A stretch of 64,000 bases of DNA, from positions 12,384 to 76,383 of the forward strand of contig JBMYRG010000013.1 of assembly GCA_049602055.1 (NCBI GenBank), written 5' to 3'. Shown here piece after piece: positions 22,242 to 62,620 of the stretch (the first letter of the stretch is position 1; each line of letters opens with the position of its first letter). Made by a program: the position numbers and the translations under genes. The notes under the pieces are model-generated. The model searched no databases. It was not told the origin of the DNA and worked only from the letters and a program-made list of their open reading frames with translations. Source of the stretch: Alphaproteobacteria bacterium. GTDB taxonomy: Bacteria > Pseudomonadota > Alphaproteobacteria > MPNO01 > UBA2964.

Positions 22242-23528
22242 ATGGGCTGTCTTTTTCGTCTCAGCGGTCTTTTTTTTCTCGCAATAATTATCGGATTGCC
22301 AATAGCGATTGCGATGAATGCTGTCCAGGATGTACCCGCCCTCAAAAGACCCGGCGCCATCAATCTGCAGGATTTAAAAAACGCCCAGCAATTGGCCAGG
22401 CGTTTTGATCCTCGCTTAATGCCGCCGGACAGGATCACAGAAATTCGGGCGACAACACGTGAGTTAAACACCGTTCTGAAAGGCGCAATGGCGTCGATTC
22501 CAAATGTCGTAACCACTGTCAAAGTGGCTCGGTTTGGCATCCTCATAGGAATGTCTGTGGAGTTACCAGACAACCCCCTTGGGCGTTACCTCAACATCCG
22601 TACTGTTATTGCGTCTTCTTCACGAGGCCTGAGATTTTACCGCCTTTATGTCGGCAAGGTGGAAATTCCTCAGCAACTCATCGATCCTGCTCTCCGCTAT
22701 GCACTGGATGAAATCGTGGGCAAAGGTAAGGCCGATCCGATTTTGAAGAGCGTTCGCTCCGTTAAGGTCCTGGGTCCAACAATCTATGTTCGCTTTCAGC
22801 CGCCACCGAATTTGTTAAAGGACATTAAAACCGCAGCAAGAAAACGAATACAAATCAGCAGTCCAAAGACCGTAAAACCCTACTATGACCTGATCGAAAA
22901 ACTTGCCGCGCAATATTCCTCGCTGAGCCGGGTTTCCCTGACAGATTTTATACGCCCTCTATTCAAATTAGCAGGGCAGCGATCAAGCTCCGGTGATCCT
23001 ATCGATGAAAACAGGGCAGCCATTTTGGCACTGGTTTTGTATTTCGGCGATTCCCGCTTTGAGCGGTTTATTGGCGAAGTGCGAACTGCTCAGCAGAAAT
23101 CAAAACGGGGGAAAATCTCTCATGTCAGGCTAAATGACCGTCACGATTTTGTTCAGCATTTTGCAATTTCAGCCGGATTGACGCTAACCGGTGGCGAAGA
23201 TACAGCGAATATCATTGGTGTCCTCAAAGAAGTGAAAGACGCCGCCAATAAGAAGAGTGGTTTCAGCTTCACCGATATTGGCGCGGATAGAATGGGTGTC
23301 CGCTTTGCGAAAAAGGCCACCGAAAACCGAAGCAAAGCACTCGAATTTCAGAGAGTGCTGTCCGCCGCAAGCTCAGAACGCAGTTTTTTCCCGACCTTTA
23401 CCGACCTGCCTCAAGGGATGACGACCGCTCAGTTTAAAAGCCGCTATCGCGACACGAAAAGCAAAAAATATAGAGACGAGATTGCGAAAATTGACCGCCG
23501 CATAGATGCCATCGGCATGTATCGATGA
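22242..23528 (+). CDS. Hypothetical protein with an N-terminal membrane anchor (428 aa)
   Basis: One N-terminal TM segment, then a hydrophilic K/R-rich body. Its stop overlaps the downstream EamA start (ATGA). Confidence 0.45.
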   Translation: MGCLFRLSGLFFLAIIIGLPIAIAMNAVQDVPALKRPGAINLQDLKNAQQLARRFDPRLMPPDRITEIRATTRELNTVLKGAMASIPNVVTTVKVARFGILIGMSVELPDNPLGRYLNIRTVIASSSRGLRFYRLYVGKVEIPQQLIDPALRYALDEIVGKGKADPILKSVRSVKVLGPTIYVRFQPPPNLLKDIKTAARKRIQISSPKTVKPYYDLIEKLAAQYSSLSRVSLTDFIRPLFKLAGQRSSSGDPIDENRAAILALVLYFGDSRFERFIGEVRTAQQKSKRGKISHVRLNDRHDFVQHFAISAGLTLTGGEDTANIIGVLKEVKDAANKKSGFSFTDIGADRMGVRFAKKATENRSKALEFQRVLSAASSERSFFPTFTDLPQGMTTAQFKSRYRDTKSKKYRDEIAKIDRRIDAIGMYR

Positions 23529-27010: not shown

Positions 27011-27708
27011 CGCTTCGTCATCTGGGTTTTACCAAACAGGATGTCGCGGGATTTGTCATCCAGAACGTCGCGAGTCTTGGCCCGTTTGTCAGTTAGGAGC
27101 TTCATGCCCTCCTGCACCGCCGGGCGTGCAGCGACATCATCAAACCAGCGTTTCACATTGGGGAAATCGTCCCAAGGCTGGCCATGATAGCGATGTACGC
27201 GAACCCAGGGCCAACAGGCCATATCAGCAATTGAGTAATCATCGCCCGCCAGATAGGTCGCTTCCGCCAGCCGTCTGTCCATCACGCCGTAGAGCCGCCC
27301 TGCTTCATCGGTAAAACGGTTGATCGCGTATGGCACCCGTTCCGGCGCGGCGTCACGAAAATGATGCGCTTGTCCGCAGATCGGGCCGAGATTGCCCATC
27401 TGAAACATCAGCCATTGCATCACCTCGTAACGCTTGTTGCTTGACGAGGGCATGAATTTGCCTGTCTTGTCAGCGAGATAAAACAGGATGGCACCCGACT
27501 CAAAAATTGAGACTGGTTTACCCTCCGGTCCTTCTTCATCAACCAAGGCTGGCATCCGATTATTCGGGCTGAGTTCCAGGAATTCAGGTGCAAACTGATC
27601 GCCTGCGGTGATGTCTACGGCGACGACCTGATATTCAAGCCCGCATTCTTCCAGCATGATCGAGACTTTGTGCGCGTTGGGTGTTGGCCAGGCATGCAGT
27701 GTGATCAT
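27007..27708 (-). CDS. Glutathione S-transferase, Nu-class (YfcG/YghU-like)
   Basis: N-terminal thioredoxin fold 'ITLHAWPTPNAHKVSIMLEECGLEY', and 'ESGAILFYLADKTG'. The ATG at 27708 shares its A with the TGA of the upstream EamA gene. Confidence 0.85.
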   Translation of the reverse strand: MITLHAWPTPNAHKVSIMLEECGLEYQVVAVDITAGDQFAPEFLELSPNNRMPALVDEEGPEGKPVSIFESGAILFYLADKTGKFMPSSSNKRYEVMQWLMFQMGNLGPICGQAHHFRDAAPERVPYAINRFTDEAGRLYGVMDRRLAEATYLAGDDYSIADMACWPWVRVHRYHGQPWDDFPNVKRWFDDVAARPAVQEGMKLLTDKRAKTRDVLDDKSRDILFGKTQMTKR

Positions 27709-28577
27709 CAACTGTCTCCCTTGTTACGTGCCCCGCGCTGTACCGCGTAGCTCGTCGCGCAAAAGATGACAATCGCCCCGACCCATGTCCAGATATCCGG
27801 AAGTTCACTAAACAACACCCAGCCAAACGCCGCCCCGATTGGCATGCGCAGAAAGTTTACCGGCTGGACAACGCGAGCCGGCGCCAGCGCAATCCCCTTG
27901 GAGACCGTTACGTAGCCAATCGTTGAGAGGACGGAAGCACCGACAATTGCTGGCATATCGATCCAGAGAGGCGTCTTCCAATCGACAATCGCCATCGGCA
28001 AAGAAATCGGGACTAACAAAAAGTTGGCATAGAATACGATGACCGTCGTCGGTACCGTCTTTGAGAGCGATTTGATCACTGTATTGACGCTCGCATAGCT
28101 CGCTGCGCAGGCGATTGCCGCGACCGCCGCAAACGAAACTTCAATTATGCCCGGCCGTAAAACGATCAACACCCCCGCAAATCCGATAAAGGTCGCCAGC
28201 CAGCTGGCGATATCAGAGCGTTCACGGAGAAAGATAATCGCGAAGGCGATGGTAAAGAGCGGTGTTGCAAATTGCAGGGCAAAGAACTCGGCGACCGGCA
28301 TCCGGCCCGCTGAATAGAACCACAGAAAAATACCAATATAGGAGAAGACTCCCGTCATCAGCACCGCGAAGGGCCGTTTCGGCCAGAGGGAAGAGCCTCG
28401 CAATTGAAAGATCACCGGCGCCAGAATGATCACCGCGATAACCGAGCGGAAAAATGTCAGAAGAAATGGTGAATAGACTTCACCGATATAACGGATCAGC
28501 GTCGCCGAACCGACATAGCAGAAGGCGCTAACCAGCATATAGAAAGCACCCTGGACTGACGCTGGTAGAGCATTCAT
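27708..28577 (-). CDS. DMT/EamA transporter, array member 6 of 6 (3'-most)
   Basis: Paralog in the tandem array, with the conserved C-terminus 'ARVVQPVNFLRMPIGAAFGWVLFSELPDIWTWVGAIVIF'. Confidence 0.85.
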   Translation of the reverse strand: MNALPASVQGAFYMLVSAFCYVGSATLIRYIGEVYSPFLLTFFRSVIAVIILAPVIFQLRGSSLWPKRPFAVLMTGVFSYIGIFLWFYSAGRMPVAEFFALQFATPLFTIAFAIIFLRERSDIASWLATFIGFAGVLIVLRPGIIEVSFAAVAAIACAASYASVNTVIKSLSKTVPTTVIVFYANFLLVPISLPMAIVDWKTPLWIDMPAIVGASVLSTIGYVTVSKGIALAPARVVQPVNFLRMPIGAAFGWVLFSELPDIWTWVGAIVIFCATSYAVQRGARNKGDS

Positions 28578-29455
28578 GTGGCTGCCGTCTTTTCCGGTGT
28601 TTTAGCACCACGCCGAACCGCATAGGTCGTTGCACAAAAGATGATTACAGCGCCAACCCAGGTCCAAAGGTCAGGGAACTCGCTGAACAATACCCAGCCA
28701 AACACGGCGGCAATCGGCATCCGCATAAAGTTCACCGGCTGGATGACCCGTGCCACCGTCAGCGAAATGGCTTTCGTAACAGACAGATAAGCCATTGTCA
28801 GGCACAGGCAGATCGCGACGATGATGCCAAAGTCATAAAGCGTTGGTTGCTTCCAGGTCACTAGCGCCATCGGAATTGAAATCGGAATCATCAGAAGATG
28901 GGCATAATAGACAATCATTGTCGCCGACACGCCTTTAGAGAGCGATTTGATAACCGTATTGTCGCTCGCATAAAAGACCGCACTAATCAGCGCTGCCATG
29001 GCCGCAAAGGAAATCTCGATAATTCCGGGGCGCAGGATTACAAGCACGCCAGCGAAACCAATCAAGGCTGCGATCCAGCTCCGGACATCTGCGTTCTCCC
29101 GTAAAAAGAAAATCGCAAAGGCCATTGTCAGAAGCGGTGTCACAAACTGCAGCGCAAAGAAATCAGCAATCGGCATCGATGCCGTGGCAATGAACCAGAA
29201 AATAATCCCCAGATAGGTAAACACCCCGGTCAGCAAATGCATGAAGAAGCGTTTGGGAATAAATAATAGCCTGCCACCTTCACTAAGATAGACCGGTGCC
29301 AAGGCAACAACCGCGACGAAGGAGCGGATCATTGTCATTTGATATGCGGAATAGGTGTCCCCCACCTCACGCACCAATGAGGCCGCACAAGCGTAGAAAA
29401 CACAGCTCGACAGCATCCAGAGTGACCCGATAACCGCACCGGGTAACTGCTTCAT
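28574..29455 (-). CDS. DMT/EamA transporter, array member 5
   Basis: About 55-60% identical to member 6. ATGA overlaps on both sides. Confidence 0.85.
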   Translation of the reverse strand: MKQLPGAVIGSLWMLSSCVFYACAASLVREVGDTYSAYQMTMIRSFVAVVALAPVYLSEGGRLLFIPKRFFMHLLTGVFTYLGIIFWFIATASMPIADFFALQFVTPLLTMAFAIFFLRENADVRSWIAALIGFAGVLVILRPGIIEISFAAMAALISAVFYASDNTVIKSLSKGVSATMIVYYAHLLMIPISIPMALVTWKQPTLYDFGIIVAICLCLTMAYLSVTKAISLTVARVIQPVNFMRMPIAAVFGWVLFSEFPDLWTWVGAVIIFCATTYAVRRGAKTPEKTAAT

Positions 29456-30315
29456 TTCTTTTTACTCTGCTGAATAGCGTACCAAGCAGCGCCAAAAATG
29501 ATCACCGCCCCAAACCAGGTCCAGAGATCAGGGAACTCGCCAAACACCATAAAGCCCATTGCGGCAGCGATCGGCATGCGCAGGAAGTTCATTGGCTGTA
29601 CGACCCGCGCATCGGCCAGCGAGATACTGGAGGCCACACAAAACTGCGCCAGCGTTGCGAACAACGCCACGGCGATCAGGATCGGCCAGTCTGTCGCAAC
29701 CGGTGTTTTCCAGGTCAGATATGCTGGTATCACGGCAAGCACCAGAACAAGAACGTTGACGTAAAATGTCATCACCATCGGCGAGTCCTGACGCGACAGC
29801 ACTTTAATACAGGTATTTACAAACGCGTATGCCGCTGCCGTGCCGAGCGCTGCAATGACACCAAGCGAAACAGGTATATAGCCTGGTCGGATAATGACCG
29901 TCACACCCAGAAAACCGATTAATGCTGCCAACCAGCTTTTGGCGCTGACTTTCTCGCGCAACAAAATTGCCGCAACGGCAATCGTGAAGAGTGGCGAAAC
30001 AAACTGGATAGCGAAGAAGTCACCAACGGGTATTTTTTCAGTGGCGTAGAACCATAAAAGAATCGAGATATAAGTTAATACGGCCCGCACGCAATGTAGT
30101 GGAAAAGCGGTGGTTTTTAACTCCTTGAGATCGCCCCGCAGGATCAGCGGTGTGAGAACGATCACCCCGACAACACAGCGCAAAAATGTTAGTTCAAAGG
30201 TCGGATAACTACCCGCCAGATAGCGAGTCAGCGTCGCTGAGGATACATAGCAAACCGACGCGCCAAGCATCCACAGAGCGCCCTTGATAGCATTGGAATA
30301 GGCAGCATCGGTCAC
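29452..30315 (-). CDS. DMT/EamA transporter, array member 4 (the GTG start forms a GTGA overlap with the upstream gene)
   Basis: Paralog. The start is placed at the GTG at 30315..30313 (VTDAAYSNAIKGALWML), aligned to the N-termini of the sibling genes. The ORF-track extension to 30546 overlaps the upstream gene by 235 nt and is rejected. Confidence 0.75.
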   Translation of the reverse strand: MTDAAYSNAIKGALWMLGASVCYVSSATLTRYLAGSYPTFELTFLRCVVGVIVLTPLILRGDLKELKTTAFPLHCVRAVLTYISILLWFYATEKIPVGDFFAIQFVSPLFTIAVAAILLREKVSAKSWLAALIGFLGVTVIIRPGYIPVSLGVIAALGTAAAYAFVNTCIKVLSRQDSPMVMTFYVNVLVLVLAVIPAYLTWKTPVATDWPILIAVALFATLAQFCVASSISLADARVVQPMNFLRMPIAAAMGFMVFGEFPDLWTWFGAVIIFGAAWYAIQQSKKK

Positions 30316-31199
30316 TTGGTCGTGGCCTCCTCGCGAATGACATAATACGCAGCCCCAAAAATGACCACGGCACCAACCCAGGTCCAAATGCCGGGCAGCT
30401 GGCCGAACATCACATACCCAACGGCCACCGTAAATGGCATGCGGAGGAAGTCGAACGGCCAGACAATACGCGCATCTGCCGTCGCTATCGCCCGTGCCAG
30501 CGCCCACTGCCCAGCCGTCGTAAAGACGCCAAGGGCTATTATCCATCCGAGAGTGTGTAACGGGGGCAATTGCCAGGCAAATAACAGCGGAATTGCCGCC
30601 ACAACGACCATCACCAGATTGCCAAAGACAGTGATTGTCGTCGTACTTTCAGTGCGCGACAGTTTCTTAATAAAGATATTTGTACAGCTATAGAGCACTG
30701 CGGAAGTGAGTGCTGCCAGCGCCGCGATGGTAATAGTCTCAAACCCCGGTCTCAAAATAATCAGGGTGCCGATAAATCCGACGATGCAGGCTACCCAGCT
30801 ACCAACGCGCGCCTTTTCCCCGAGGAACAGTATCGCCGCGAGAATCATAAAAAGCGGCAGGGTGAATTGCAGGGCATAGACATCAGCGATTGGCATGTTC
30901 GCCAGGGCATAATATGTCGCGCCCATCGCCAGGTAGGTGAACAGGCCGCGCAACAAAAACAGATGCCAGTTCTTCAGGGACTCTTTCCCTGTTGAACCAA
31001 TATGCTTACACAGAAAGGGCAGCAATATGACCGTCGCAACGACCGAACGCCAAAACACAATCTCCATCGTGTTTAGATCGGACGACAACTGCTTAACCAG
31101 TCCGGCATTTATTGAATAGCCGATACCAGACAGTACCATCCACGCGATGCCACGCATGGCAGCGCTGCGGTTGGTCGTGCTGGCGTTGGCCGCGGTCAT
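30312..31199 (-). CDS. DMT/EamA transporter, array member 3
   Basis: Paralog. ATGA overlap with member 2 at 31196-31199. Confidence 0.85.
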   Translation of the reverse strand: MTAANASTTNRSAAMRGIAWMVLSGIGYSINAGLVKQLSSDLNTMEIVFWRSVVATVILLPFLCKHIGSTGKESLKNWHLFLLRGLFTYLAMGATYYALANMPIADVYALQFTLPLFMILAAILFLGEKARVGSWVACIVGFIGTLIILRPGFETITIAALAALTSAVLYSCTNIFIKKLSRTESTTTITVFGNLVMVVVAAIPLLFAWQLPPLHTLGWIIALGVFTTAGQWALARAIATADARIVWPFDFLRMPFTVAVGYVMFGQLPGIWTWVGAVVIFGAAYYVIREEATTK

Positions 31200-32080
31200 G
31201 CCTTTTTTACGCCTCGGCTTTCGCGACGCAGCACATCATAGGCTCCCGCAAAAATGACGACAGCACCAACCCAGGTCCAGATATCTGGCAACTCTGCAAA
31301 CATGACCCATCCAACAGCCACCGACCACGGCAGCCGTAAAAAATTGACTGATTGCACTATGCGGGCATCGGCTTCACGTATGGAGAATGTGAGGCAAACC
31401 ATTGCCAACATAAACAGCACCCCCATGAACAAAATCCCCGGCACTTGTTCCCAGCTCGGTGTCACCCAGTTAATCGCGGCGGGAACAATGGAAAGTAGCG
31501 CCACGATCGAATTAGACACCATCGTAATCATGATAGGGCTCTCGCTGCTGCCGAGTTTGCGAATGGTGATATTGGCTGCAGCAAAAGCGAAAGCCGACAC
31601 AATTGCAGCAAGAGCGCCGGGATTCATCGGGATGATACCCGGACGCACGATGATGAGCGCCCCACAAAAACCGATTACGCAAGATAGCCAACCCCGCAGA
31701 CCGACATACTCTCCGAGTAATAAACCTGCGAGCAAAATAGTGAACAGCGGTACGGTAAAGAGCAGTGATTGGACGTTCGCAATATCCATTACAGAATAGG
31801 CATAGAAAGAAGCGTACATCCCGCCGAACGACAGCAACCCACGAAGGATGTAGAGACCTGAGCGACGACGAATGCCAGCAAATGATCCTTTGTCGAGGCG
31901 CATTGCCAACGGCAGGAGTAACAGGGCGCTGATGCTGCTAAAGAAGAAAAGAAGTTCTGCAACGCCGAAGTCGAAGGACAGTTTTCTGACAAAGCCGCTC
32001 GCCAAAGCCTGAAAGGCTGTTGCCAGCACCATCCACAGAACACCACGGACGACGGCGTTTGATAAAATTCCATTTTTCAT
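31196..32080 (-). CDS. DMT/EamA transporter, array member 2
   Basis: Paralog. The start is set at MKNGILSN (32080), giving an ATGA overlap with member 1. The longer ORF-track version is rejected. Confidence 0.8.
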   Translation of the reverse strand: MKNGILSNAVVRGVLWMVLATAFQALASGFVRKLSFDFGVAELLFFFSSISALLLLPLAMRLDKGSFAGIRRRSGLYILRGLLSFGGMYASFYAYSVMDIANVQSLLFTVPLFTILLAGLLLGEYVGLRGWLSCVIGFCGALIIVRPGIIPMNPGALAAIVSAFAFAAANITIRKLGSSESPIMITMVSNSIVALLSIVPAAINWVTPSWEQVPGILFMGVLFMLAMVCLTFSIREADARIVQSVNFLRLPWSVAVGWVMFAELPDIWTWVGAVVIFAGAYDVLRRESRGVKKA

Positions 32081-32970
32081 GATGTTGGGGATCCAGTCGG
32101 TGCTTGGTTGGCGTTTCGTATTTTGGTTTCGCGCCACACTATGTAGTAAGACGCACCAAAAATCACTGCTGCACCAACCCAGGTCCAAATATCGGGCAAT
32201 TCAAGAAACATGACGTAACCAATCAATGCGGCAAATATCATTCGGGTGAACTGGAAGGGTTGGACCACACGGGCATCCGCTGCACCAACCGCCATCGTAA
32301 AACAGATGCCCCCGACAGCACTGAAAAACGCCGCCCCAAATATCCACGGGATTTGCTCCAGAGTTGGCGTTACCCAGATAAAGACGGTTGGGATCATTGC
32401 CAGCGGCAGCATAAGCAAATTGGAATAAACCGTAATGGTTCCAACACTTTCCGTTCTGGTTAGTAGCTTTATCGTGGTGTTGGAGCCTGCTGACATCATT
32501 GCGGAAGCAATAGCAGCAACTGCGGCCAAGGTAAGCTCGATAACGCCAGGTCGCATAACTATTAACGCTCCGGCAAAGCCAACGAGGCATGCCGCCCAAG
32601 CCTGACGATCTGTTTGTTGTTTAAGGATAAATACGGCGAGCATGATCGTGAACAAGGGGATGGTGAATTGCAGGGCAAACACATCCGCAATCGGCATTTC
32701 TCCCCAGGCGTAAAACAGCGTGACCATCGCGGTATAGGCGAAAAATACCCGTAGACAATATAGAGGTAGGCGACTGGTTCGCATCACGCCAAACCCCTCA
32801 CGAAAAAGCCAGGGCACTAGTAGAAGCAAACCAACAACATTTCGGAAAAGGACCAGCTCTAAAGTCGGCACTTCACCCGCGAGCTGGCGTACACAGGCAC
32901 CGGCTGCAGCGCTGAGCAACATTGCCAGACTCATCCAAAGAATCCCGGCGATAGGACGGTTTGGTTTCAA
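32077..32970 (-). CDS. DMT/EamA transporter, array member 1 (5'-most)
   Basis: Paralog (297 aa) with the conserved 'ADARVVQPFQFTRMIFAALIGYVMFLELPDIWTWVGAAVIF' C-terminus. Confidence 0.85.
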   Translation of the reverse strand: MKPNRPIAGILWMSLAMLLSAAAGACVRQLAGEVPTLELVLFRNVVGLLLLVPWLFREGFGVMRTSRLPLYCLRVFFAYTAMVTLFYAWGEMPIADVFALQFTIPLFTIMLAVFILKQQTDRQAWAACLVGFAGALIVMRPGVIELTLAAVAAIASAMMSAGSNTTIKLLTRTESVGTITVYSNLLMLPLAMIPTVFIWVTPTLEQIPWIFGAAFFSAVGGICFTMAVGAADARVVQPFQFTRMIFAALIGYVMFLELPDIWTWVGAAVIFGASYYIVWRETKIRNANQAPTGSPTS

Positions 32971-33076: not shown

Positions 33077-33550
33077 TTATTCGAAAATGGAAAGCTGGGA
33101 TTCCATGTCGTCGACGCGCATTGGAAAATCAATACCGTCGCGCGCATTCATAATTTTATTTGGCGCTATGAAAGCGAGGTCACGCTGCAAATCTATCGCA
33201 AACCGAGCACTTAAACCTGCTTTCCAGGCGAGAGCGACAATCGTTTTAACGCTTTTAACGCGGACCATGCGTTCGACTGTCGGCATCGGAATTTTGGCGC
33301 GCAATGCGAGTGCTGCTTTGACGAACTCATAGTCTTTATTGTCCAAAGCCGCAGCGAGCGACTCATTCGTCAGTTTGTTTTCATCAAACAAGCGTTTGGC
33401 CCGATAGCGCGGCGCCTCACCATTCTCAGCGAAAAAATAGAGGACCTCAGGCGGCGTGGTGGGATCAGCGGCAAGGGCTTTACGCGCCGCATCGTCATCA
33501 CTTTGCAGAATTCCGCCTAACTCTTGGTACTGTTTGGCTGCCGTTGCCAT
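33077..33550 (-). CDS. Conserved hypothetical protein (157 aa, soluble, alphaproteobacterial-type)
   Basis: Clean ORF with its own intergenic regions. No motif recognised. Confidence 0.5.
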   Translation of the reverse strand: MATAAKQYQELGGILQSDDDAARKALAADPTTPPEVLYFFAENGEAPRYRAKRLFDENKLTNESLAAALDNKDYEFVKAALALRAKIPMPTVERMVRVKSVKTIVALAWKAGLSARFAIDLQRDLAFIAPNKIMNARDGIDFPMRVDDMESQLSIFE

Positions 33551-39360: not shown

Positions 39361-40392
39361 ATGAAAACTGACGCCTTCGATTTCGATCTCCCAAAAGAGC
39401 TAATCGCCCAGGAGCCCGCCACACCCCGGGATTCAGCGCGCCTGCTGCATATCGGCGAAGATCTTGTCGATCTTTCGGTTCGAGATTTACCAAAGCTAAT
39501 CAATCCTCGCGACGTTTTGGTCGTCAATAATACAAAGGTCATTCCTGCCCGTTTGCGCGGACGCCGGGGGGAAGCGTCAATCGAGATCACGCTACACAAA
39601 CGCAACGGCGATGAAACCTGGTGCGCCTTTGCGCGCCCCGCAAAACGCCTGCGCGAAGGCGACATCATAGAATTCGCCTCCAACTTTTCTGCTGCCGTTG
39701 TTGAGAAAAGAGATAGCGGCGAGATTGTTGTCGGGTTTTCAGGACAAGAGGTTTTCAGTGGCCTTGCTGAAAATGGCTTTATGCCCCTGCCACCCTACAT
39801 AGGTCGAAAAGAAGGCGTCAGAGAAACCGATCACCAAGACTATCAGACAGTTTATGCTGCCAAAGCTGGTGCGGTTGCCGCACCAACCGCTGGACTTCAT
39901 TTTACGGACTCCTTGCTATCAGAAATAAAAAACGTGGGTATCGACATCGTTGAACTCACTTTGCATGTAGGCGCTGGCACGTTCCTCCCGGTGAAGGTCG
40001 AGGATACCGACGAACACAAAATGCATTCTGAATGGGGACAGCTCGATGAAACAGCTGTCCAGAGGATAATGAAAGCACGTCATGCCGGTGGCAAAGTAAT
40101 GGCGTGCGGCACTACCGCACTACGGCTCCTGGAATCAGCGGCGCCTGCTGTTGGAGAACTCGCCCCCTTTGAGGGCGATACTGATATATTTATTACGCCC
40201 GGCTATAAATTTCGGATTGTCGATAGATTGATAACAAATTTTCATCTGCCCTGTTCAACCCTGTTCATGTTGGTTTCGGCCTTTTCAGGGCTTGGCCGGA
40301 TGAAGGCCGCCTACGCCCATGCCGTCAATTCGAAATATCGCTTCTATTCCTATGGCGACGCCTGTTTGCTGGAGAAAAACGAGCCATCATGA
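39361..40392 (+). CDS. queA: S-adenosylmethionine:tRNA ribosyltransferase-isomerase
   Basis: '[14 protein letters not shown]...R..SRLL', '[13 protein letters not shown]', '[10 protein letters not shown]' are QueA hallmarks. Length is 343 aa. Confidence 0.9.
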
Positions 40393-41528
40393 CCCCGACT
40401 GGCATCAAATTCGAACTTATTGCCACCGATGGTGCCGCTCGTCGGGGCCGTCTATCAACCGCTCATGGCGAGATCAATACACCGGCGTTTATGCCTGTAG
40501 GTACAGCAGGAACCGTAAAAGCCATGATGCCAGAAGATGTCGCAGCAACGGGTGCTGAGATCATCTTAGGGAACACCTATCATCTGATGCTACGCCCGAC
40601 GGCTGAGCGGGTCGCCAGGCTAGGCGGATTGCATCGATTTATGAATTGGCCAAAACCAATCCTCACCGATTCCGGCGGTTACCAAGTGTTCTCGCTTTCG
40701 AAGCGGCGGACGATCAGCGAGGACGGTGTCATCTTTCAGTCTCACATCGATGGCACGAAAATTGACCTAACACCGGAACGCTCAATAGAAATTCAAAATC
40801 TGCTCGGTTCCAACATCACGATGGTTCTGGATGAATGCACTGAGTGGCCTATATCAGAACCGGATGCCCGCAAATCGATGGAGCTTTCCATGCGGTGGGC
40901 GGTCCGCTGCAAAGAAGTCTTTGACGCAAGACCAGGCTACGGGCTGTTTGGCATTGTCCAGGGAAGCATGTACCGCGAACTTCGCCATGAATCTGCAGCG
41001 CGATTAATTGAAACCGGATTTGATGGCTACGCGGTTGGCGGGTTAGCCATTGGCGAACCACAAGACGTCATGTTTGAAGTGCTTGACTATACGGTCCCTA
41101 GCCTGCCTAAGGAACGACCCCATTATCTGATGGGTGTCGGCAAGCCAGGCGATATCGTTGGCGCTGTTCAACGCGGGATCGATATGTTCGATTGCGTCAT
41201 TCCAACTCGATCAGGTCGTACCGGCCAGGCCTTTGTCCGCGGCGGCTCGCTCAACCTTCGCAATGCAAAACATACGGAGGATGAAAGACCGCTTGATACG
41301 CGCTGTACATGTCGAGTTTGCACCAACTATAGCCGGGCCTATCTTCACCACCTCATTAAAGCCGGCGAAATGCTGGCGGGAATGCTTTTGACACTGCACA
41401 ACCTGCATTACTATCAGGCCTTGATGGCCGCCATGCGTGACGCGATTGAGAATGAAACGATGAGTAACTTCGTGGCCACATTTGCTGCGGAACAAGAAGC
41501 TGGTGCAGTTGTGTCGGAAACCAAATAG
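40389..41528 (+). CDS. tgt: Queuine tRNA-ribosyltransferase (tRNA-guanine transglycosylase)
   Basis: '[13 protein letters not shown]', a Zn site 'C.C..C...H', and 'HNLHYY'. ATGA overlap with queA. Confidence 0.9.
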
Positions 41529-41544
41529 ATGACGGAGATAGTCA

Positions 41545-42009
41545 ATGACTGCGAATAGTGACGAAACATTGACCCAACTTGGTGCCCATACGCCGATGCC
41601 GGCATCTCCAGAAGAAGCGGTATTGGAGCGGGTCAGCAATCCACAAACGGGTACGATGTATCTCGCGAGGTTTACCTGCCCGGAATTCACCAGCCTGTGC
41701 CCGGTTACCGGCCAGCCCGATTTTGCTCATCTGGTTATCGACTACGCGCCGAACGAATGGATTGTCGAAAGCAAGTCCTTAAAGCTTTTTCTTGGGTCAT
41801 TCAGAAATCACGGTGCTTTTCATGAAGATTGTACGGTCGGCATTGCAAAACGGCTTGAAGAATTACTGTCACCACATTGGTTAAGGATTGGCGGTTATTG
41901 GTATCCGCGGGGCGGTATGCCGATAGACGTGTTCTATCAAAATGGCCATCCGCCCGCTGATCTGTGGATTCCGGATCAAGGCGTCTCTACCTATCGCGGG
42001 CGCGGGTGA
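41545..42009 (+). CDS. queF: NADPH-dependent 7-cyano-7-deazaguanine (preQ0) reductase, type I
   Basis: '[24 protein letters not shown]' contains the catalytic Cys and QueF motif. Length is 154 aa. Confidence 0.85.
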
Positions 42010-43142
42010 GCAAAGCACAACCAGACAAAGCAGACGCAACAGCTTCGATAAGGGATCGCGCCCTGACATTGGGGTTTGACGTTGTTGGGTTTGCGCCAGC
42101 AACGCTCAGCGAGAAAGCGCGTGAACGTCTCTGTGATTATATTTCAAACGGATATCACGGCGATATGGGCTGGCTAGCCGAACGCACTCAGCAGCGATCT
42201 CAACCAACGGATCTATGGCCAGAGGCGAAAAGTGTAATCGTCGTCGGATTGAATTACGGCCCGAAAGACGACCCGCTAGAAGTGCTCGACAAGCCCGAGC
42301 GTGGTGCAATTTCCGTATATGCCCGTGGACGGGATTATCACGATGTCGCCAAAAAGAAACTCCGGGTTCTCGCCCGATATATCGCCGATGATCTCGACGG
42401 TGACGTAAAGCTTTTTGTCGATACTGCGCCGGTTATGGAAAAGCCACTAGCTGCAAAGGCTGGACTTGGATGGCAAGGTAAACACACAAACCTGGTGTCG
42501 AAGACCGCCGGGTCCTGGCTTTTCCTGGGCGAAATCTACACGACCTTATCATTGGCTGAGGAGAGTGAAGGCGAAAACAACTGTGGTAGTTGCTCTCGCT
42601 GTCTCTCTGCCTGTCCCACAAATGCCTTCCCGGCACCTTATAAGCTCGATGCTCGCCGATGTATCTCGTATTTAACAATTGAGCATAAGGGTCACATTCC
42701 CCTCGAATTCAGAGAAGCAATTGGCAATCGGATTTATGGCTGCGACGATTGTCTCGCTGTTTGCCCTTGGAATAAATTTGCACACCTAACGAACGAACCA
42801 GAACTTGAAGCTAGGCTGGAGTTACGGTGGCCGCGGCTCGTAGACCTGGTGCAGCTGGATGATGCCGCCTTTAGACAAATCTTCTCAGGTTCACCGGTAA
42901 AACGGCTGGGCCGTGATCGATTTATCCGAAATGTCCTGATCGCCATCGGCAACAGCAGGATGGCCGAGTTAATACCTTATGCAGAAGCTAAACTAGAAGA
43001 CAAATCCCCGTTGGTAAGGGCAATGGCTGTGTGGGCTCTTTCACACCTAATATCATCCAATTCATATGCGAAATTGCGCTCAATTCATCAGAAGAATGAA
43101 CCCGACATAGAGGTTCAGCAAGAATGGGAGGACAGAGGTTAA
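42006..43142 (+). CDS. queG: Epoxyqueuosine reductase
   Basis: 4Fe-4S ferredoxin motifs '[16 protein letters not shown]' and '[13 protein letters not shown]', plus a C-terminal HEAT-like region. The start is set at the GTG at 42006 (GTGA overlap with the queF stop) rather than the ORF-track ATG at 41964. Confidence 0.8.
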
Positions 43143-43290
43143 TCCTGGGATTTAGCGGCGTTTGGCTGTGTACTGTCGGTAAATTTTACAGTTAGGTCAT
43201 ATCAAATTGCAGCTACCCTTGATAACTAGCTGGAATCCATCATTTTAACGACAATGGCACACTTCTTGCTTCGACGTAGCGGGGCAGTGT

Positions 43291-44136
43291 GTGCTTCACA
43301 AAGTATTTACACTGAAAATATGGTCAATGACGGTTTTAAAGTTCAGGAACAGGATGATTGCGATGATGATTGCCGCCTTTGGTGTGATCATTGCTGTGTC
43401 CGGACCTGCCCATGCCATCGCGACTTATAGCTCCAGTTCCTCAGCGACGGTGACGATAACAGGATTCAGCACAACCTCAGGGCCCGTTTCCAAACCACCG
43501 ACACTCGTAATCGAGGGTACGTCGGAAGCGAGCCTTCCCGAGAGTGGGACGGTTACGAGCGGTACGGCTAGTGCTGCAATAACCGAATCAACCCTGATAA
43601 TTTCAGGGACACCTTTGGCGATTATCACCGCTGACAGCGTCTCTAACATGTCTACCGCTAGCGGTAGCGCGGCGCCTCTCGGGGGACAGTCCACCTCAGA
43701 CTAGGTTACAAATGGTGAAATATTTTTCGGCAATGCCGGCACCGAAGATATCACTGTCACGTTAGGAATTGATTGGGCCTATTCTGTCATGGCGTCGACC
43801 TCTGGCATAAACCAAAAAGCGATCTCCTTCTCCAGCATCATTGTAGACACGTTGATTTTTGACTCGATCGGCGAACAAGTAGGTGAAGATATTTTCGACG
43901 TTGATCAACTCGCAATAGCGAATGGTCTTAACGGCACTTCCGAATCGTTTTCAGATTCTGATATTTTCTCGGTTGATGTTGTCGTTCTCGCAGGGTCGGT
44001 TACCAGCGTCGGTCTTTTTGTCGATGCTCGGGGATATGCTGAAGTTCCCGCGCCACCTTCATTCGCCCTATTGTCCTTGGCGGTGATCGGTATTGGATTT
44101 ATCCGACACCGCAGGGCACGACCGCTCTCGACGTAA
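43291..44136 (+). pseudogene. Ser/Thr-rich secreted protein with a PEP-CTERM-like C-terminal sorting signal, interrupted by a single in-frame TAG at 43702-43704
   Basis: ORFs 43291..43704 (signal peptide ...AVSGPAHA, S/T-rich) and 43789..44136 (C-terminus 'VPAPPSFALLSLAVIGIGFIRHRRAR') are in the same frame. Only one amber codon lies between them. All 28 codons from 43705 to 43788 are sense codons. Confidence 0.5.
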
Positions 44137-44138
44137 AA

Positions 44139-44363
44139 ATGATGTTGCCTGCATCAAACAAAGGTAATTCGCCTAATAAAAACACCGAACGACCTAACCA
44201 ACGAATAGAGATTGAAGGCGAGCCCGATCTGCTTACAGGAACTCTGGATAAGTGGCACGCCTATAGGCAGGCGCTTTCAGTATTACCGCAGGAAAATGAG
44301 AATGTCCGGGTTGCGATCGCTGTCGCAGATGCCAGAATCGCTAGATTGAACGCTGACAAATAA
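44139..44363 (+). CDS. Small hypothetical protein (74 aa)
   Basis: ORF only. Low-complexity N-terminus. It may be non-coding. Confidence 0.2.
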   Translation: MMLPASNKGNSPNKNTERPNQRIEIEGEPDLLTGTLDKWHAYRQALSVLPQENENVRVAIAVADARIARLNADK

Positions 44364-44403
44364 TTCTGGAATGATGTGATCTATTATTTCGGCGAAGTAA
44401 TCC

Positions 44404-45426
44404 TCAGTGCCGACGCTGCACCTTCAGATAATCATGACGATCACCTGACCGGATAACAACGTCGATTTGGCGCGATCCACGCACAACGCTAATACTAACA
44501 TCGGCGCCTGCACCACCGGCCGACCAAATCTTACGATACATGTCTGATAGGCTTTCGACAGCCTGAGATTCAATTTCTTCGATAATATCACCAACCTGTA
44601 AATCAGCTTGATCCGCCGGCCCACCATCGTGAACTCCTGAAACAACCAAATGCCCCAGCGCTTCAGTTGTTTGCATCCCTAACCAAGGCTTTGCGTTCTT
44701 TTGCGCACGTCCGGTATCTACAAGCTCTTGATAAATTGGCGGCAACAAATCGATTGGGACAAACATGTTCCCCTGACTTTCACTGCTATTCCCTCCGGGA
44801 TCCTGAACAAACAGCGATCCAATTCCGACAAGAGAGCCGGAACGAGGGTCAATTAGAGCACCACCACTCCATCTCGGATGCAACGGTGCAGTGAAAATTG
44901 CGGAATCGAGCAAATATTCCCAAGAACCTGCAAACTCTCGTCGGTCAACAACGTGCCCTAATATTGCGGACGGAATACCTCCCGATGCTGCGACAACAAC
45001 CTGATCATCGGTCAATATATTGTCGACATTGGAAGCTATCGGAAGTGGTGTGAGATCGAGAGGTTTCACAGTTCTGACCAAACCAAATCCGGTTCTATGG
45101 TCATATCCAACAACCTGTGCCGGAACCTCATCGCCATTTGGTCCACCGATTTCTATGTCTGTCGCCTCGGTTATCAGATAGCCAATTGTAACCAGAGTAC
45201 CGTCGGTATCGATGAGTACGGCATTGCCTTCTCTCTCCGTGCCAAGATTTCTGGCACTATGAGCGTCAGCCGGTATTTTAGACCGCAGCGACCTTACCGC
45301 GGATAACCCCACCTCAAGATCAAAGGCGACATCGTCGTCAGTTGGCTGTGGCCCTGGCATAGGGGGTTCACCCAGAGGCAAGATGCCATCAAGTCTGTGC
45401 CCATTGGCGCGCGTTACTTCTGTCAA
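44404..45426 (-). CDS. Trypsin-like serine protease (S1C/HtrA-like) with a C-terminal PDZ domain
   Basis: 'HPRWSGGALID' oxyanion/Ser region, and the PDZ-like segment 'LVVSGVHDGGPADQADLQVGDIIEEIESQAV'. No obvious signal peptide. Confidence 0.65.
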   Translation of the reverse strand: MTEVTRANGHRLDGILPLGEPPMPGPQPTDDDVAFDLEVGLSAVRSLRSKIPADAHSARNLGTEREGNAVLIDTDGTLVTIGYLITEATDIEIGGPNGDEVPAQVVGYDHRTGFGLVRTVKPLDLTPLPIASNVDNILTDDQVVVAASGGIPSAILGHVVDRREFAGSWEYLLDSAIFTAPLHPRWSGGALIDPRSGSLVGIGSLFVQDPGGNSSESQGNMFVPIDLLPPIYQELVDTGRAQKNAKPWLGMQTTEALGHLVVSGVHDGGPADQADLQVGDIIEEIESQAVESLSDMYRKIWSAGGAGADVSISVVRGSRQIDVVIRSGDRHDYLKVQRRH

Positions 45427-45776: not shown

Positions 45777-46655
45777 GTGCCAGATAGACGGGGGTTTTCT
45801 GGCCACCTATCAGGGTCGATGACTTATAAGATGAATCGTTCGATTACCTCCGCAGTAGCAATAGTCTTGCTTTTGTCCGCGATCGTCAGCGCCCCGTTTA
45901 ATCGGGCAAATGCTTTGATGTTCGTAATCGATTTCGATCCAGTTGGAATCTACGGTGGCCTTAATACAGTGGCCATGTCTTCATTCGATGTAACGCCTTA
46001 CGGATTTAGTAGTGGGCAAAGGAATACCGTTATTGCGTCTATAATGACAGAACTCAAAAACGACTTTCACAATATAGTTTCCCCTTCTATTCCCTCGGGT
46101 CAGCAACTTGCTGTCGATTTTGTCCGAGGAACGATCGGCGATGGTGGTGCTACGGCAAATGGCGACAGCAATTATTACTATGTTGCCGTGGGAAACGCCA
46201 ATAACGCGAGTGAACCACTCGGAGAAGCGTTCTTAAATAGTGCGTTCGGCCTCGCGGGCAACACCATTGCAGCCTTATATACCGATGAAATCTTCTCGGG
46301 TATTTTGAATGCTCATGGAACGGCTGGTGACCTGTTTCAGACGACCCACGTCATAGAGGGCACTCTCGCGCATGAGATCGGCCATACGCTCGGTCTGGAG
46401 CATTGTAATTTTTCAGGTGCGGTAACGCCAAATGGACTCGACCCGCTGATGGCATCCGGCGCAACAGGACTACCCAACGCGAACCGGCTGAATGATCGAG
46501 AATTTTCGACATCATGCATAGAGGGGGCAGGGACACAAGCCACCATCGAACTTCTGGCAGCGAACGTGGGATTAGAGGATACACCCATTCCTAAGCCAGC
46601 GACGATCTTAATTTTTGGAATTGGTATCGCAGGATTCCGGTTTATACGGCGCTAA
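45777..46655 (+). CDS. Secreted metzincin-type zinc metalloprotease with a PEP-CTERM-like C-terminal anchor
   Basis: Signal peptide (...SAIVSAPFNRANA), zinc motif 'HEIGHTLGLEH' (HExxHxxGxxH), and the C-terminus 'PIPKPATILIFGIGIAGFRFIRR'. The likely start is a downstream Met (MTYKMNRS). Confidence 0.7.
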   Translation: MPDRRGFSGHLSGSMTYKMNRSITSAVAIVLLLSAIVSAPFNRANALMFVIDFDPVGIYGGLNTVAMSSFDVTPYGFSSGQRNTVIASIMTELKNDFHNIVSPSIPSGQQLAVDFVRGTIGDGGATANGDSNYYYVAVGNANNASEPLGEAFLNSAFGLAGNTIAALYTDEIFSGILNAHGTAGDLFQTTHVIEGTLAHEIGHTLGLEHCNFSGAVTPNGLDPLMASGATGLPNANRLNDREFSTSCIEGAGTQATIELLAANVGLEDTPIPKPATILIFGIGIAGFRFIRR

Positions 46656-50471: not shown

Positions 50472-51797
50472 ATGACCAGTGTCGATGCCTTTATCGCTGC
50501 CAACCGGTTTGGGCTTGGTCCCAAAGGCGGATATCTGGGTGGAATAGCTGCCGATCCACAAAGCTGGTTAATGCGCCAACTCGGAACAGAAGATGGCGCA
50601 CTCCCACATCTGCAAGATTTACCGACAAGCGAAGCAGTCGTTCGTACCTGGATGCAGGCACGAGGCTCGCGCGAAATGCGCAAAATATTCAGCAAAAATC
50701 GCATAAAACCGTTATTTCGCAAAGAAATCATACAACGCACCCGGGCTGCGATTGAGACCGACACGCCGTTTCGAGAGCGTCTGGTTAGGTTCTGGAGCAA
50801 CCATTTTACCGTTTCGATCACCAAAGGCCGCGTTAGGGGAATCGCTGGCGCATTTGAACGCGAGGCCATCAGACCTTTCGCCACTGGCAACTTCGCCGAC
50901 ATGCTGTTGGCGGTCATGCGACATCCCGCCATGCTTATCTATCTCGATAATCAGGCCTCTATCGGCCCCAATTCGCGACTGGGCAAAAAAAGAAATAAAG
51001 GTCTAAACGAGAACCTGGCTCGCGAAATTCTTGAACTACACACGTTGGGCGTGAACGGTGGCTATACGCAAGATGATGTCATCGCTTTAGCCAAGATGTT
51101 GACTGGATGGTCGGTCGCGGGAAAACGCTCCCCTCACGCCGGACGATTCAAATTTAATGCACAACGGCATGAACCCGGCGCAAAGCAATTTATGGGAAGG
51201 CGTTATCACGAAGACGGCGAGGAGGAAGCAGAGCAGGCACTTCGCGCACTCGTCAAACATCCTTCTACTTCCCGGTTCGTCGCAACAAAACTTGCCCGGC
51301 ATTTTGTATCGGACAGCCCCTCCGCTCAAGTCGTGGGCCAGCTCCAGAGAAAATTCCAGGAAACCGGTGGCGATCTTGGTGCCATGGCGCGTGAACTCAT
51401 TACGCTGTCAGCCATATGGGACGAGCCCCTTACCAAAGTTAAATCACCCAGTGAGCTGGTCATTTCCGTCATGCGTATGTTGGGGCCACCCTAAAAACCC
51501 AAGCAAATGATCCATCCATTACGATTGTTGGGTCAATTGCCCTTCTCCGCTCCCTCACCAGCGGGGTGGCCTGATACGGCGAAAGACTGGATTAGTCCAG
51601 AATCTTTGTTACGCCGTATTGAACTTATGGATTTCCTGGCACGCCGCCAAACAACGCGCGAGGACCCCATAACACTTGCGGATCAAGCATTTGGCCCCGT
51701 CGCCCGCGAAGAAACTTTACTGGCTATCAGACGGGCGCCAAGCCGTCGGGCCGCTTTTTCTGTTCTTCTCTCTAGCCCCGAATTTCAGCGGAGATAA
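50472..51797 (+). pseudogene. DUF1800-family protein interrupted by one in-frame TAA (51492-51494)
   Basis: ORFs 50472..51494 and 51507..51797 share a frame. The only stop between them is the TAA. The downstream piece ends '...LLSSPEFQRR', like the DUF1800 C-termini I recall. Together they give about 440 aa, a typical DUF1800 length. Confidence 0.5.
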
Positions 51798-51800
51798 CTT

Positions 51801-52999
51801 ATGACATCACGTCGTGGATTCCTGATGGGCGCGACCGCCGCCGGATTGTTAAGCGCCGTTGCACTCCCTGGCATTGCTGTCGCTGCTGCAAACACAAAAA
51901 AACGATTTGTCCTTGTCATTTTACGTGGCGGGATGGATGGATTGGCTGCCTTCCCGCCAATTGGTGACCCCGATTACCAGTCGCTTCGCAGCGGCTTAGC
52001 CCAAGCGGCAGATGACACTATTGCCCTTGACGGTAATTTTTCAATGCATAAGTCGTTGGCACCGCTGATGAAACATTACAAAAAACGTCATATGGCCGTT
52101 GTCCATGCCGTAGCTGTTCCACAACGGACTCGTTCGCATTTTGACGCCCAAAACGTTCTCGAAAACGGCGCTTCTAAAGCGCATTTATTACAAGACGGCT
52201 GGCTCAATCGAGCCTTAAGGGTGATTGATTATAGGGAACAACGGCTCGGATTGTCTGTTGGGTACAGCACACCACCCGTGATGCGCGGAACGACCCCCAC
52301 CACTTCATGGGCGCCAGCCCGCATCCCCCTTCGCCACCTGATCTACTTGATACATTGGGGAGCCTATACCAATCCGACCCTATACTAGGTCGAGCACTCA
52401 ACGAAGGACGGCGGGCGCAGGAGATGACGGGCGCTGTCCTCGGCGATACCAAAATGAAACGAGGCAATATGCGTAGCCCTGGACGATTTAAATCACTTGC
52501 TGAATCTGCCGGAAGACTACTCGCGGCAGAGCAAGGCGCCAGGATCGCGGTCATTGAGATGGGTGGCTGGGACACACACGCAAATCAAGGAGCAACGACC
52601 GGGCGATTAGCGCGCAATCTCGGACTGTTAGCGAACGGGCTTAACGAACTTTCACTGCAACTCGGTCCTGTTTGGCGAGATACTGTTGTCTGCGTCGTCA
52701 CCGAGTTTGGCAGAACTGTCCGCATGAATGGCAGCAAAGGCACCGACCACGGAACCGCAGGCGCCGCTATTTTACTAGGCGGGGCGATTGCTGGTGGACG
52801 GGTCGCAACGCGATGGCCCGGATTAGCGCCGAACGCCCTTTATGGCGGCCGGGATTTAGCCCCGACAACACATATGCGTGGCCTGTTCAAAACCGTTCTG
52901 CATAATCACCTCAATATTCCCTCAGCTGCCCTCGACCAGAAAGTATTCCCAGACAGTAAAAAAGCCGAAGCACCACTAGGACAACTTGTTCGGATATAG
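51801..52999 (+). pseudogene. DUF1501-family (Tat-signal, sulfatase-like) protein with a frameshift near 52328-52334
   Basis: An N-terminal twin-arginine signal 'SRRGFLMGATAAG' and 'VLVILRGGMDGL' are in frame 0. Frame 2 continues from 'PSPPDLLDTLGSLYQSDP...' to the 'GTDHG' C-terminus. The junction falls at a CCCCC run. Confidence 0.55.
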
Positions 53000-61304: not shown

Positions 61305-62030
61305 ATGTCACAAGAAGATACTGCATTGGTAATTTTTTCCGGCGGGCAAGACAGCTCGACCTGCCTCGCATGGGCCGTCGAAAACTTCGCCCGTGTTGAA
61401 ACTGTTGGTTTCGATTATGGCCAACGGCATTCGGTAGAGCTCGACTGTGGAAAGCAGGTTTTGGCCGCAGTGCGTCGAGCCTTTCCGGCGTGGCAGCGAA
61501 AGCTGGGAGACGACCATCTGCATGCAATCCCCGTGCTTGGCAATATCAGTGAAACAGCACTCACCCGAGATACAGAAATTGCCTTCGCCGAAGGCGGCCT
61601 CCCCAATACGTTTGTTCCGGGTCGGAACCTGATCTTCCTGACGCTTGCTGCCGCAATCGCGTATCGTCGTGGCATTCAGCATATCATCGTCGGTGTGGGT
61701 GAGGTCGATTATTCGGGTTATCCCGACTGCAGGGAAGATTCTATCTCCTCAATGGAAGACGCTCTCAATATCGGCATGGAGTCTGACTTCATCCTGCACA
61801 CGCCTTTGATGCACCTCGATAAAACCGCGATCTGGGAAATGGCTGACCAAATTGGCGGCCCAGAACTAACTGATATTATTATAGAATACAGTCACACCTG
61901 CTATCTCGGAGACCGTAATACGCGGCACGATTGGGGATATGGTTGTGGGCATTGTCCAGCCTGTGCCTTACGGGCGTCGGGGCATGAGGGTTTTATTGAA
62001 CAGACTGTCAAAGCTGACAAAACGACTTAA
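61305..62030 (+). CDS. queC: 7-cyano-7-deazaguanine synthase
   Basis: PP-loop '[12 protein letters not shown]', and a C-terminal Zn cluster 'CGHCPAC'. Length is 241 aa. Confidence 0.9.
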
Positions 62031-62035
62031 TAACC

Positions 62036-62620
62036 ATGTATGATTTAGGATCAAAGATTTCATCAATGAAACCCAATCGGCTCGAAGGATACATTTTTCT
62101 TGGGGCCTTCGCCCTCACTATTCCAGCCGCGAACTGGTTAATTGGTAATGCCGGAACTGTTTGTCTGGATAAAGGCCCTTGTCTGATACCCGTTGCGCCA
62201 GGGCTTATGGCGCCAAGCGGGGTTCTGATGATTGGCCTTGCTCTTGTTCTCCGCGACCTGGTCCAACGTCGGCTCGGCGCTATATTCGCGATCAGCGCTA
62301 TCCTTGCAGGCGCGGCCCTGTCAGCCTTTCTCGCGCCACCCTCCTTGGTCCTGGCATCAGGAGCGGCCTTTTTGTTGTCTGAGCTCGCCGACTTTGCGGT
62401 TTATACGCCACTTCAGCGCCGCCGTTTAGTCCTCGCTGTTTTTGCAAGTGGCATCGTCGGGTTAACGATAGACAGCGCTGTTTTCCTCTATCTGGCCTTT
62501 GGCAATCTGGATTTTATAGCCGGCCAAATTGTCGGCAAGAGCTGGATGATTATCCTGGCCCTTCCAGCAATTATGTGGATACGTCAAAGAGACGAACGGC
62601 TTGGTATTCAGCCGGCCTGA
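62036..62620 (+). CDS. Queuosine-precursor transporter (YhhQ/DUF165 family)
   Basis: Six TM segments. 'GYIFLGAFALTIPAANWLIGNAG' and 'FLLSELADFAVYTPLQRR' are typical of COG1738. It lies immediately downstream of queC. The start may be the MKPNRLEG Met (62066). Confidence 0.65.
   Translation: MYDLGSKISSMKPNRLEGYIFLGAFALTIPAANWLIGNAGTVCLDKGPCLIPVAPGLMAPSGVLMIGLALVLRDLVQRRLGAIFAISAILAGAALSAFLAPPSLVLASGAAFLLSELADFAVYTPLQRRRLVLAVFASGIVGLTIDSAVFLYLAFGNLDFIAGQIVGKSWMIILALPAIMWIRQRDERLGIQPA

Follow-up and report, generated by a model that had tools for sequence, protein, structure and literature searches.

A probable recent nonsense allele of a PEP-CTERM-type surface protein gene in uncultured marine Alphaproteobacteria

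Introduction

The cargo proteins of the PEP-CTERM/exosortase (EpsH, Xrt) system form a known class (Haft et al. 2006, PMC1569441; Pfam PF07589, TIGR02595), in which an N-terminal signal peptide is combined with a tripartite tail that consists of a Pro-rich motif, a transmembrane (TM) helix and an Arg cluster. Here we describe a gene, located in a stretch of DNA of 64 kb (hereafter the window), whose product likewise carries such a signal peptide and such a tail. A second protein of this kind is encoded 1.7 kb away, and distant relatives of the focal protein have VPEP...RRR in the same alignment columns. The focal protein differs from canonical cargo in its clade motif, VPAP, which has Ala in place of Glu, and in its score against PF07589, which at 13.9 bits lies under the gathering score of 20.7. 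The best-scoring named family is EDSAP-1 (NF041538), to which the focal gene is related distantly and not as a member (21 bits vs. 100). Our search of the literature on PEP-CTERM proteins, exosortases and pseudogenes brought up no work that deals specifically with this clade.

The reading frame of the focal gene is interrupted by an amber codon, for which two kinds of described system offer themselves for comparison. Ordinary nonsense pseudogenes and segregating null alleles show the same single transition in a conserved sense codon with intact alleles in close relatives, and likewise other types of lesion in the same gene elsewhere and a stop that is itself not conserved. We see no essential difference between these and the present case, and the phenomenon is already well known in kind; what distinguishes this locus is that it is unusually well documented (17 contigs, at least 8 haplotypes) and that three neighbouring genes decay in parallel. 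Programmed recoding of stop codons, either by pyrrolysine at UAG or by suppressor tRNAs, has a superficial likeness only, namely a UAG in frame with a long open stretch behind it. In such systems the UAG is recoded, whereas here the stop is not conserved and UAG terminates other genes of the window.

Results

One gene split by an in-frame amber codon

The first of two open reading frames (ORFs), 43291..43704 on the forward strand, ends in TAG at 43702-43704. The 28 codons that follow (43705-43788; VTNGEIFFGNAGTEDITVTLGIDWAYSV) are sense throughout, and the second ORF, 43789..44136, shares their frame and runs to a C-terminus ending in EVPAPPSFALLSLAVIGIGFIRHRRARPLST before a TAA, leaving the frame past the TAG open for 144 codons. 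A preliminary description of this DNA had reported this layout, with the TAG as the only interruption, and the sequence confirms it. The pairing of two ORFs in one frame is more than chance, because the entire read-through product of 43354-44136 aligns over its whole length with intact homologs of 256-281 amino acids (aa). The interval 43354-44136 is a single gene of 260 codons, split by the TAG.

The true start is probably the ATG at 43354 (MIAMMIAAF...) and not the GTG at 43291, because the homologs begin at MIAMM and an AGGA lies 8 nt upstream of the ATG. The 5' part of the disrupted gene (43354..43701, forward strand) would then comprise this likely ATG, the signal peptide and the Ser/Thr-rich first ~95 residues of the mature protein. 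By inspection, the Sec signal peptide MIAMMIAAFGVIIAVSGPAHA (43354-43416), followed by IAT, combines a hydrophobic core with an A-x-A cleavage site (A-H-A before the Ile) and is conserved in homologs. The signal peptide and the Ser/Thr-rich body of the preliminary description are thus borne out, with the qualification that the richness is confined to the part before the stop: Ser and Thr together account for 41% of the mature residues upstream of the stop vs. 18% downstream of it.

The 3' part (43705..44136, forward strand) contains seven of twelve predicted beta strands as well as the sorting signal, without any further lesion, and is now either untranslated or translated only from an internal ATG at 43789. 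The PEP-CTERM-type sorting signal VPAPPSFALLSLAVIGIGFIRHRRARPLST (44044..44133, forward strand) combines a motif in which Ala replaces the canonical Glu with a TM helix and a cluster of Arg residues. Both halves of the gene have been annotated by gene callers: public collections hold the exact 116-aa product that precedes the stop (P0016), and the 115-aa fragment that follows it is listed at NCBI as MGB0576295.1.

A divergent PEP-CTERM-type protein with a continuous beta domain

The tail is tripartite and sits at the extreme C-terminus, with VPAPPS, the hydrophobic segment FALLSLAVIGIGF and IRHRRAR all inside the last 30 residues. The earlier suggestion of a PEP-CTERM-like tail finds support at the level of the family. 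PF07589 matches six of the 15 members of the alignment of close homologs (A1) at E<=1, with a best E of 8.9e-5. A profile search of 1.84 billion representative sequences returned 87 relatives, mostly of 240-300 aa, and in an alignment of 58 sequences the C-termini read VPEPxxLxLLxxGLxGLxxxRRR, with VPAPPS of the window protein in the same columns. TIGR02595 (PEP-CTERM) matches 33 of these 58 wider-family members at E<=0.01 and NF041538 (EDSAP-1 family PEP-CTERM protein) matches 37 of the 58, in both cases with every match under the family cut-off. The window protein itself scores 21.1 bits against NF041538 (E 2e-4), short of the curated cut-off of 100 bits, and this match runs across the stop codon, aligning query residues 85-263 with profile positions 117-307. 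Taken together, these relationships point to a divergent member of the PEP-CTERM type that is homologous to the canonical proteins and that, judging by its tail, is presumably exosortase cargo; its family is a branch, so far uncharacterised, of an established class. No exosortase was seen among the ORFs tested within the 64-kb window. Two adjacent ORFs for uncharacterised membrane proteins with hydrophobic N-termini, 20817-22157 and 22242-23528 (446 and 428 aa), have no Pfam match at E<=0.001.

An AlphaFold2 run on the 58-sequence alignment gave a confident model (pLDDT 92, pTM 0.81) that is all-beta, with twelve long beta strands between an N-terminal and a C-terminal helix. The signal peptide region is modelled as a helix of residues 2-14, and the residue that has turned into the stop, Q117 of P0001, lies within the strand of residues 112-127. 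On this model, the truncated product would be a partial domain with neither anchor nor sorting signal. A Foldseek comparison of the model with solved structures found no real similarity.

The model also bears on whether the locus could be a functional split gene, with a secreted Ser/Thr-rich N-fragment of 95 residues and/or a C-fragment of 115 aa from ATG 43789 having roles of their own. The annotation of both halves by gene callers, including the NCBI entry for the second, would be consistent with such a division, as would the fact that the allele is common in its lineage and has persisted onto several haplotypes. However, the model is one continuous beta domain with the break inside a strand, no Shine-Dalgarno sequence precedes ATG 43789, the C-fragment would be made without a signal peptide, and a protein boundary at the position of the stop occurs in no relative. 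Separate functions for the two halves are therefore extremely unlikely, and an interrupted single gene is the preferred reading.

The amber codon replaces a conserved glutamine

A homolog search of 5.8 billion proteins yielded 14 close relatives of the read-through product. The full-length relatives among them (256-281 aa) have Gln at the site of the stop, within a near-invariant D-Q-V-T-N-G-E motif. The preliminary description had asked which residue orthologs carry at this position, and the answer is uniform: the codon is CAG or CAA, and hence Gln, in every intact relative. It had also considered that orthologs might genuinely end here, but none do, and the diverged orthologs run through the site with Gln.

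In nucleotide sequence, GAC-TAG of the window corresponds to GAC-CAG in the contig L019 (ERR9287632), which is 99.2% identical to the window. The stop site is GAT-CAG in L001 and L020, which belong to a lineage 95% identical to that of the window, and GAT-CAA in L002-L004. Because L019 is so close to the window, the premature amber codon (43702..43704, forward strand) can be traced to a single C>T transition at 43702 on a GAC-CAG background, by which the CAG codon for Gln became TAG. When the window is compared with L001 alone (GAC-TAG vs. GAT-CAG), a TC>CT dinucleotide swap or a small inversion could be considered; the intermediate GAC-CAG of L019 rules this out, and there were therefore two separate transitions, of which only the second is the nonsense change.

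The amber allele recurs in independent assemblies

An exact-sequence look-up located the 116-aa pre-stop and 115-aa post-stop fragments in NCBI, JGI, ENA and Logan assemblies, with the exact 115-aa fragment on 17 public contigs. Ten of these 17 were inspected (L009-L018), each from a different sample accession (ENA, Logan, JGI), and the TAG is present in all ten. They represent at least eight haplotypes, with 0-4 other differences from the window per 1.2 kb. Since the TAG occurs in ten contigs on at least eight haplotypes, the allele is real and has persisted for long enough to reach varied backgrounds. Within the window lineage it is, moreover, the prevalent form: the intact 269-aa form (P0022) is found on one contig, as compared with 17 that carry the amber-allele fragment.

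These observations leave almost no room for a sequencing or assembly error, in which the T at 43702 would be a miscall and the gene intact. It is true that the window and its intact sister allele L019 differ by just one base, and that a frameshift in the nearby DUF1501 gene of the window, located in a run of five C residues and missing from a 175-kb contig of the same lineage, is a lesion of the type that errors produce. A miscall would, however, have had to recur in ten of ten contigs from ten sample accessions, through different pipelines (ENA, Logan, JGI, NCBI) and within at least eight flanking haplotypes, and a substitution is atypical for a systematic error. We also considered whether the window is rich in errors generally, given its three broken genes within 10 kb. 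This is ruled out for both of the nonsense codons, whose truncated products recur in independent assemblies; among the three broken genes, the DUF1501 frameshift alone may be an error.

The lesion appears to be young

We compared the window with intact relatives codon by codon. Relative to L020, dN/dS is 0.11 for the whole gene (0.12 in the part preceding the stop, 0.08 in the part following it); relative to L004 it is 0.07. The intact gene has been under strong purifying selection. Because dN/dS is ~0.1 on either side of the stop and the part downstream has not decayed, the lesion appears to be recent. Neither relaxed constraint nor a second lesion was found after the stop, as judged by the dN/dS of 0.08 and by the ten amber haplotypes, which fits a young lesion and does not amount to positive evidence that the gene is decaying.

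Among the ten amber haplotypes, the interval 43200-44400 contains 9-10 variable sites, all of them in the flanking 770 nt; the 432 nt downstream of the stop (43705-44136) are invariant. About three SNPs would be expected in these 432 nt, and the probability of finding zero is roughly 0.02-0.04. A SNP-free segment is equally expected from continued expression downstream of the stop and from a young lesion. We do not read it as evidence of expression. The post-stop segment is also low in dS between lineages: between the intact L020 and the window, dS is 0.078 after the stop vs. 0.24 upstream.

Gene neighbourhood

The focal gene has a conserved setting, which is found in metagenome-assembled genomes (MAGs) of uncultured marine Alphaproteobacteria: queA-tgt-queF-queG, the focal gene, an ORF of 73-74 aa, an S1C/PDZ protease on the opposite strand, and a metzincin-like PEP-CTERM protein. 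The small ORF (44139..44363, forward strand; 74 aa in the window) starts 2 nt past the stop of the focal gene, as it does in all lineages, is kept at 73-74 aa in L003, L009-L019 and L026-L029, and gave no family match. It is probably co-transcribed or translationally coupled with the focal gene, and the upstream amber codon may therefore have a polar effect on it. Scans for promoters and terminators at the locus gave results at chance level only. The S1C (HtrA-like) serine protease with a PDZ domain (44404..45426, reverse strand) is intact and separates the two PEP-CTERM genes in all lineages.

The metzincin-like gene (45819..46655, forward strand), which encodes an HExxHxxGxxH motif, is a second PEP-CTERM cargo gene and shows that there is more than one PEP-CTERM protein per genome. 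Its sorting motif, near 46590-46655, is IPKPAT in the window lineage, a change of Glu to Lys, vs. a canonical (I/V)PEP in every other lineage. In L010 and L014, which belong to this lineage, and not in the window, a C>T change at 46497 additionally turns CGA into TGA and removes the last 52 aa.

Several further features of the window are recorded here as observations in their own right. Genes for queuosine synthesis cluster at 39361-43142, where queA-tgt-queF-queG lie directly 5' of the focal gene, and at 61305-62620 near the window end, where queC is accompanied by a Vut_1/YhhQ-type transporter, possibly for a queuosine precursor. The reverse strand at 27708-32970 encodes six EamA/DMT transporter paralogs in tandem, each of ~290-300 aa, with overlapping stop and start codons and apparently intact; odd long ORFs at 29.4-33 kb, considered as possible additional pseudogenes, are wrong-frame overlaps of this intact array. 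L002 and similar relatives have an apparently full DUF2336 gene of 424 aa at the corresponding position. A DUF2336 ORF of 157 aa (33077-33550, reverse strand), which matches profile positions 145-219 and has 424-aa counterparts in L002 and L027, may be a remnant beside the array.

Parallel lesions in related lineages

The focal gene is damaged in related lineages by lesions of other kinds. L001 and L026, from two independent samples, have an additional G in the gene (+1), their only difference from the intact L020 over 1 kb; the complete chromosome L008 has a 19-nt deletion; and the UBA2964 MAG L006 lacks 1 nt ahead of the sorting signal and a further 22 nt within it. Four relatives on short contigs, where effects of the contig ends are possible, miss ~56 residues of the Ser/Thr-rich segment (P0009, P0010, P0011 and P0014). 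P0009, P0011 and P0014 also have a C-terminal frameshift of the L006 type (...ARGPPKC...), and P0010 stops before that region. These variants may be further independent damage to the focal gene.

Two genes located 6 kb away are affected as well. The DUF1800 gene of the window (50472..51797, forward strand) is interrupted in frame by a TAA at 51492-51494, at a position occupied by Glu in the ortholog (PP*KPK vs. LPEKSK). Its truncated product of 340 aa is present in several independent assemblies, and an intact form of 441 aa exists in a sister lineage (GCA_040260895.1). The adjacent DUF1501 gene (51801..52999, forward strand) has its frameshift near 52325. Because L023, the 175-kb contig from the window lineage, has this gene intact at 399 aa, the frameshift appears to be a minority allele or an assembly error.

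Compared across lineages, the four genes show the following. The window lineage has the amber codon in the focal gene, the Glu-to-Lys change in the PEP motif of the metzincin-like protein with TGA in some members, the TAA in DUF1800, and the DUF1501 frameshift in some members. In L006 the focal gene has the frameshift and deletion, the metzincin-like gene and DUF1501 are missing, and DUF1800 is reduced to a 99-residue remnant. In L008 the 19-nt deletion in the focal gene is accompanied by a collapse of DUF1800 and DUF1501 into one remnant, and the metzincin-like gene is present with an intact VPEP tail. The focal, metzincin-like and DUF1800 genes are all intact in L002/L004, L005, L007, L028 and L020+L021. 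DUF1501 is not uniformly clean in this last set: it is full-length (399-452 aa) in L002, L021 and L028, but in the alignment the L004 copy changes frame close to its 3' end and the L005 copy contains one stop, and for L007 the alignment leaves the locus. The frameshift allele of L001/L026 is an exception to the joint damage, in that the same JGI sample holds the intact DUF1800 and DUF1501 of its lineage (L022).

Three lineages (the window, L006/UBA2964 and L008) have thus independently suffered damage to, or deletion of, the focal gene and the DUF1800/DUF1501 pair; in two of them, the window lineage and L006, this extends to the metzincin-like neighbour. DUF1800 is broken in three of four lineages with a broken focal gene vs. 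none of five with an intact one, which corresponds to a Fisher probability of about 0.05 for lineages that are not independent; the co-loss of the focal gene and DUF1800 is suggestive only.

UAG as an ordinary stop in the window

The preceding results allow an assessment of amber read-through or suppression, by which a full-length protein would still be made with the help of a suppressor tRNA or a Pyl tRNA, or by leakage, with a near-cognate tRNA-Gln decoding the UAG. The 144 open codons past the TAG, and the absence of relaxed constraint in the downstream part, are what such decoding would be expected to leave behind, and a leak by tRNA-Gln at UAG would even restore the native residue. UAG misreading by near-cognate tRNA-Gln is established in E. 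coli. Low-frequency reading of this kind is also described in yeast (PMC4150775).

On the other hand, the stop is not conserved, the diverged orthologs all having CAG or CAA, and TAG is in regular use as a terminator, ending 20 of the 61 long ORFs in the window (~1/3). Among the genes that end in TAG, tgt and an aldo-keto reductase do so at lengths equal to those of their orthologs. Searches of the 64-kb window found neither a tRNA gene nor an Rfam element, and no recoding machinery or signal was seen. A G follows the stop codon, which is not known to weaken termination in bacteria, and nothing suggests that tRNA-Gln misreads this particular UAG above background. In addition, the other lesions in the focal gene and its neighbours are TAA and TGA codons, frameshifts and deletions, which lie beyond rescue by an amber suppressor, and therefore amber suppression cannot explain the losses. 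We consider read-through very unlikely and regard the TAG as a normal stop that truncates the focal protein.

Discussion

The preliminary description left three options for this locus: a recent nonsense pseudogene, a sequencing error, or a gene expressed through amber read-through or suppression. The first is the one that stands, given Gln in the orthologs and CAG in a sister sequence 99.2% identical to the window. An error is at odds with the TAG in ten of ten contigs, and suppression with the use of TAG as a normal stop and with the other types of lesion. We put the probability at about 0.88 that the locus carries a recent, real nonsense mutation that has generated a null allele, or young pseudogene, of a PEP-CTERM-type cargo gene.

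The course of events that we propose is as follows. The interval 43354-44136 would originally have encoded one secreted, all-beta surface protein of ~260 aa with a signal peptide and a PEP-CTERM-type sorting signal. In a lineage of uncultured marine Alphaproteobacteria, a C>T transition has changed the conserved Gln codon CAG to TAG, so that translation now halts after residue 116. The allele is probably null, because the predicted product would be left with some five of its twelve beta strands and without the sorting signal. The focal gene, its PEP-CTERM neighbour and the nearby DUF1800/DUF1501 pair are undergoing independent loss in several related lineages, which suggests that the loss is tolerated or perhaps even favoured.

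For annotation, the implication is that the "hypothetical proteins" of 115 aa (MGB0576295.1) and 116 aa are the pieces of one disrupted PEP-CTERM gene, which should be merged and flagged as such. The finding has no bearing on the flexibility of the genetic code. Its biological weight is modest; it provides a well-documented null allele from nature, along with the intact twin of that allele, in an uncultured marine bacterium, and a surface-protein gene that has been struck repeatedly by different lesions. The locus could be used in metagenomes as a marker for the gain or loss of an exosortase-linked surface trait.

A broader and more speculative reading, unlikely on present evidence, is that the amber codon is one instance of the parallel, possibly adaptive, loss of a module that comprises both PEP-CTERM proteins and the DUF1800/DUF1501 pair. 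If this were true, the uncharacterised DUF1800/DUF1501 pair would be tied to exosortase-dependent surface biology, and there would be selection against the trait, for example in a change between particle-attached and free-living life or in the escape from phages or grazers.
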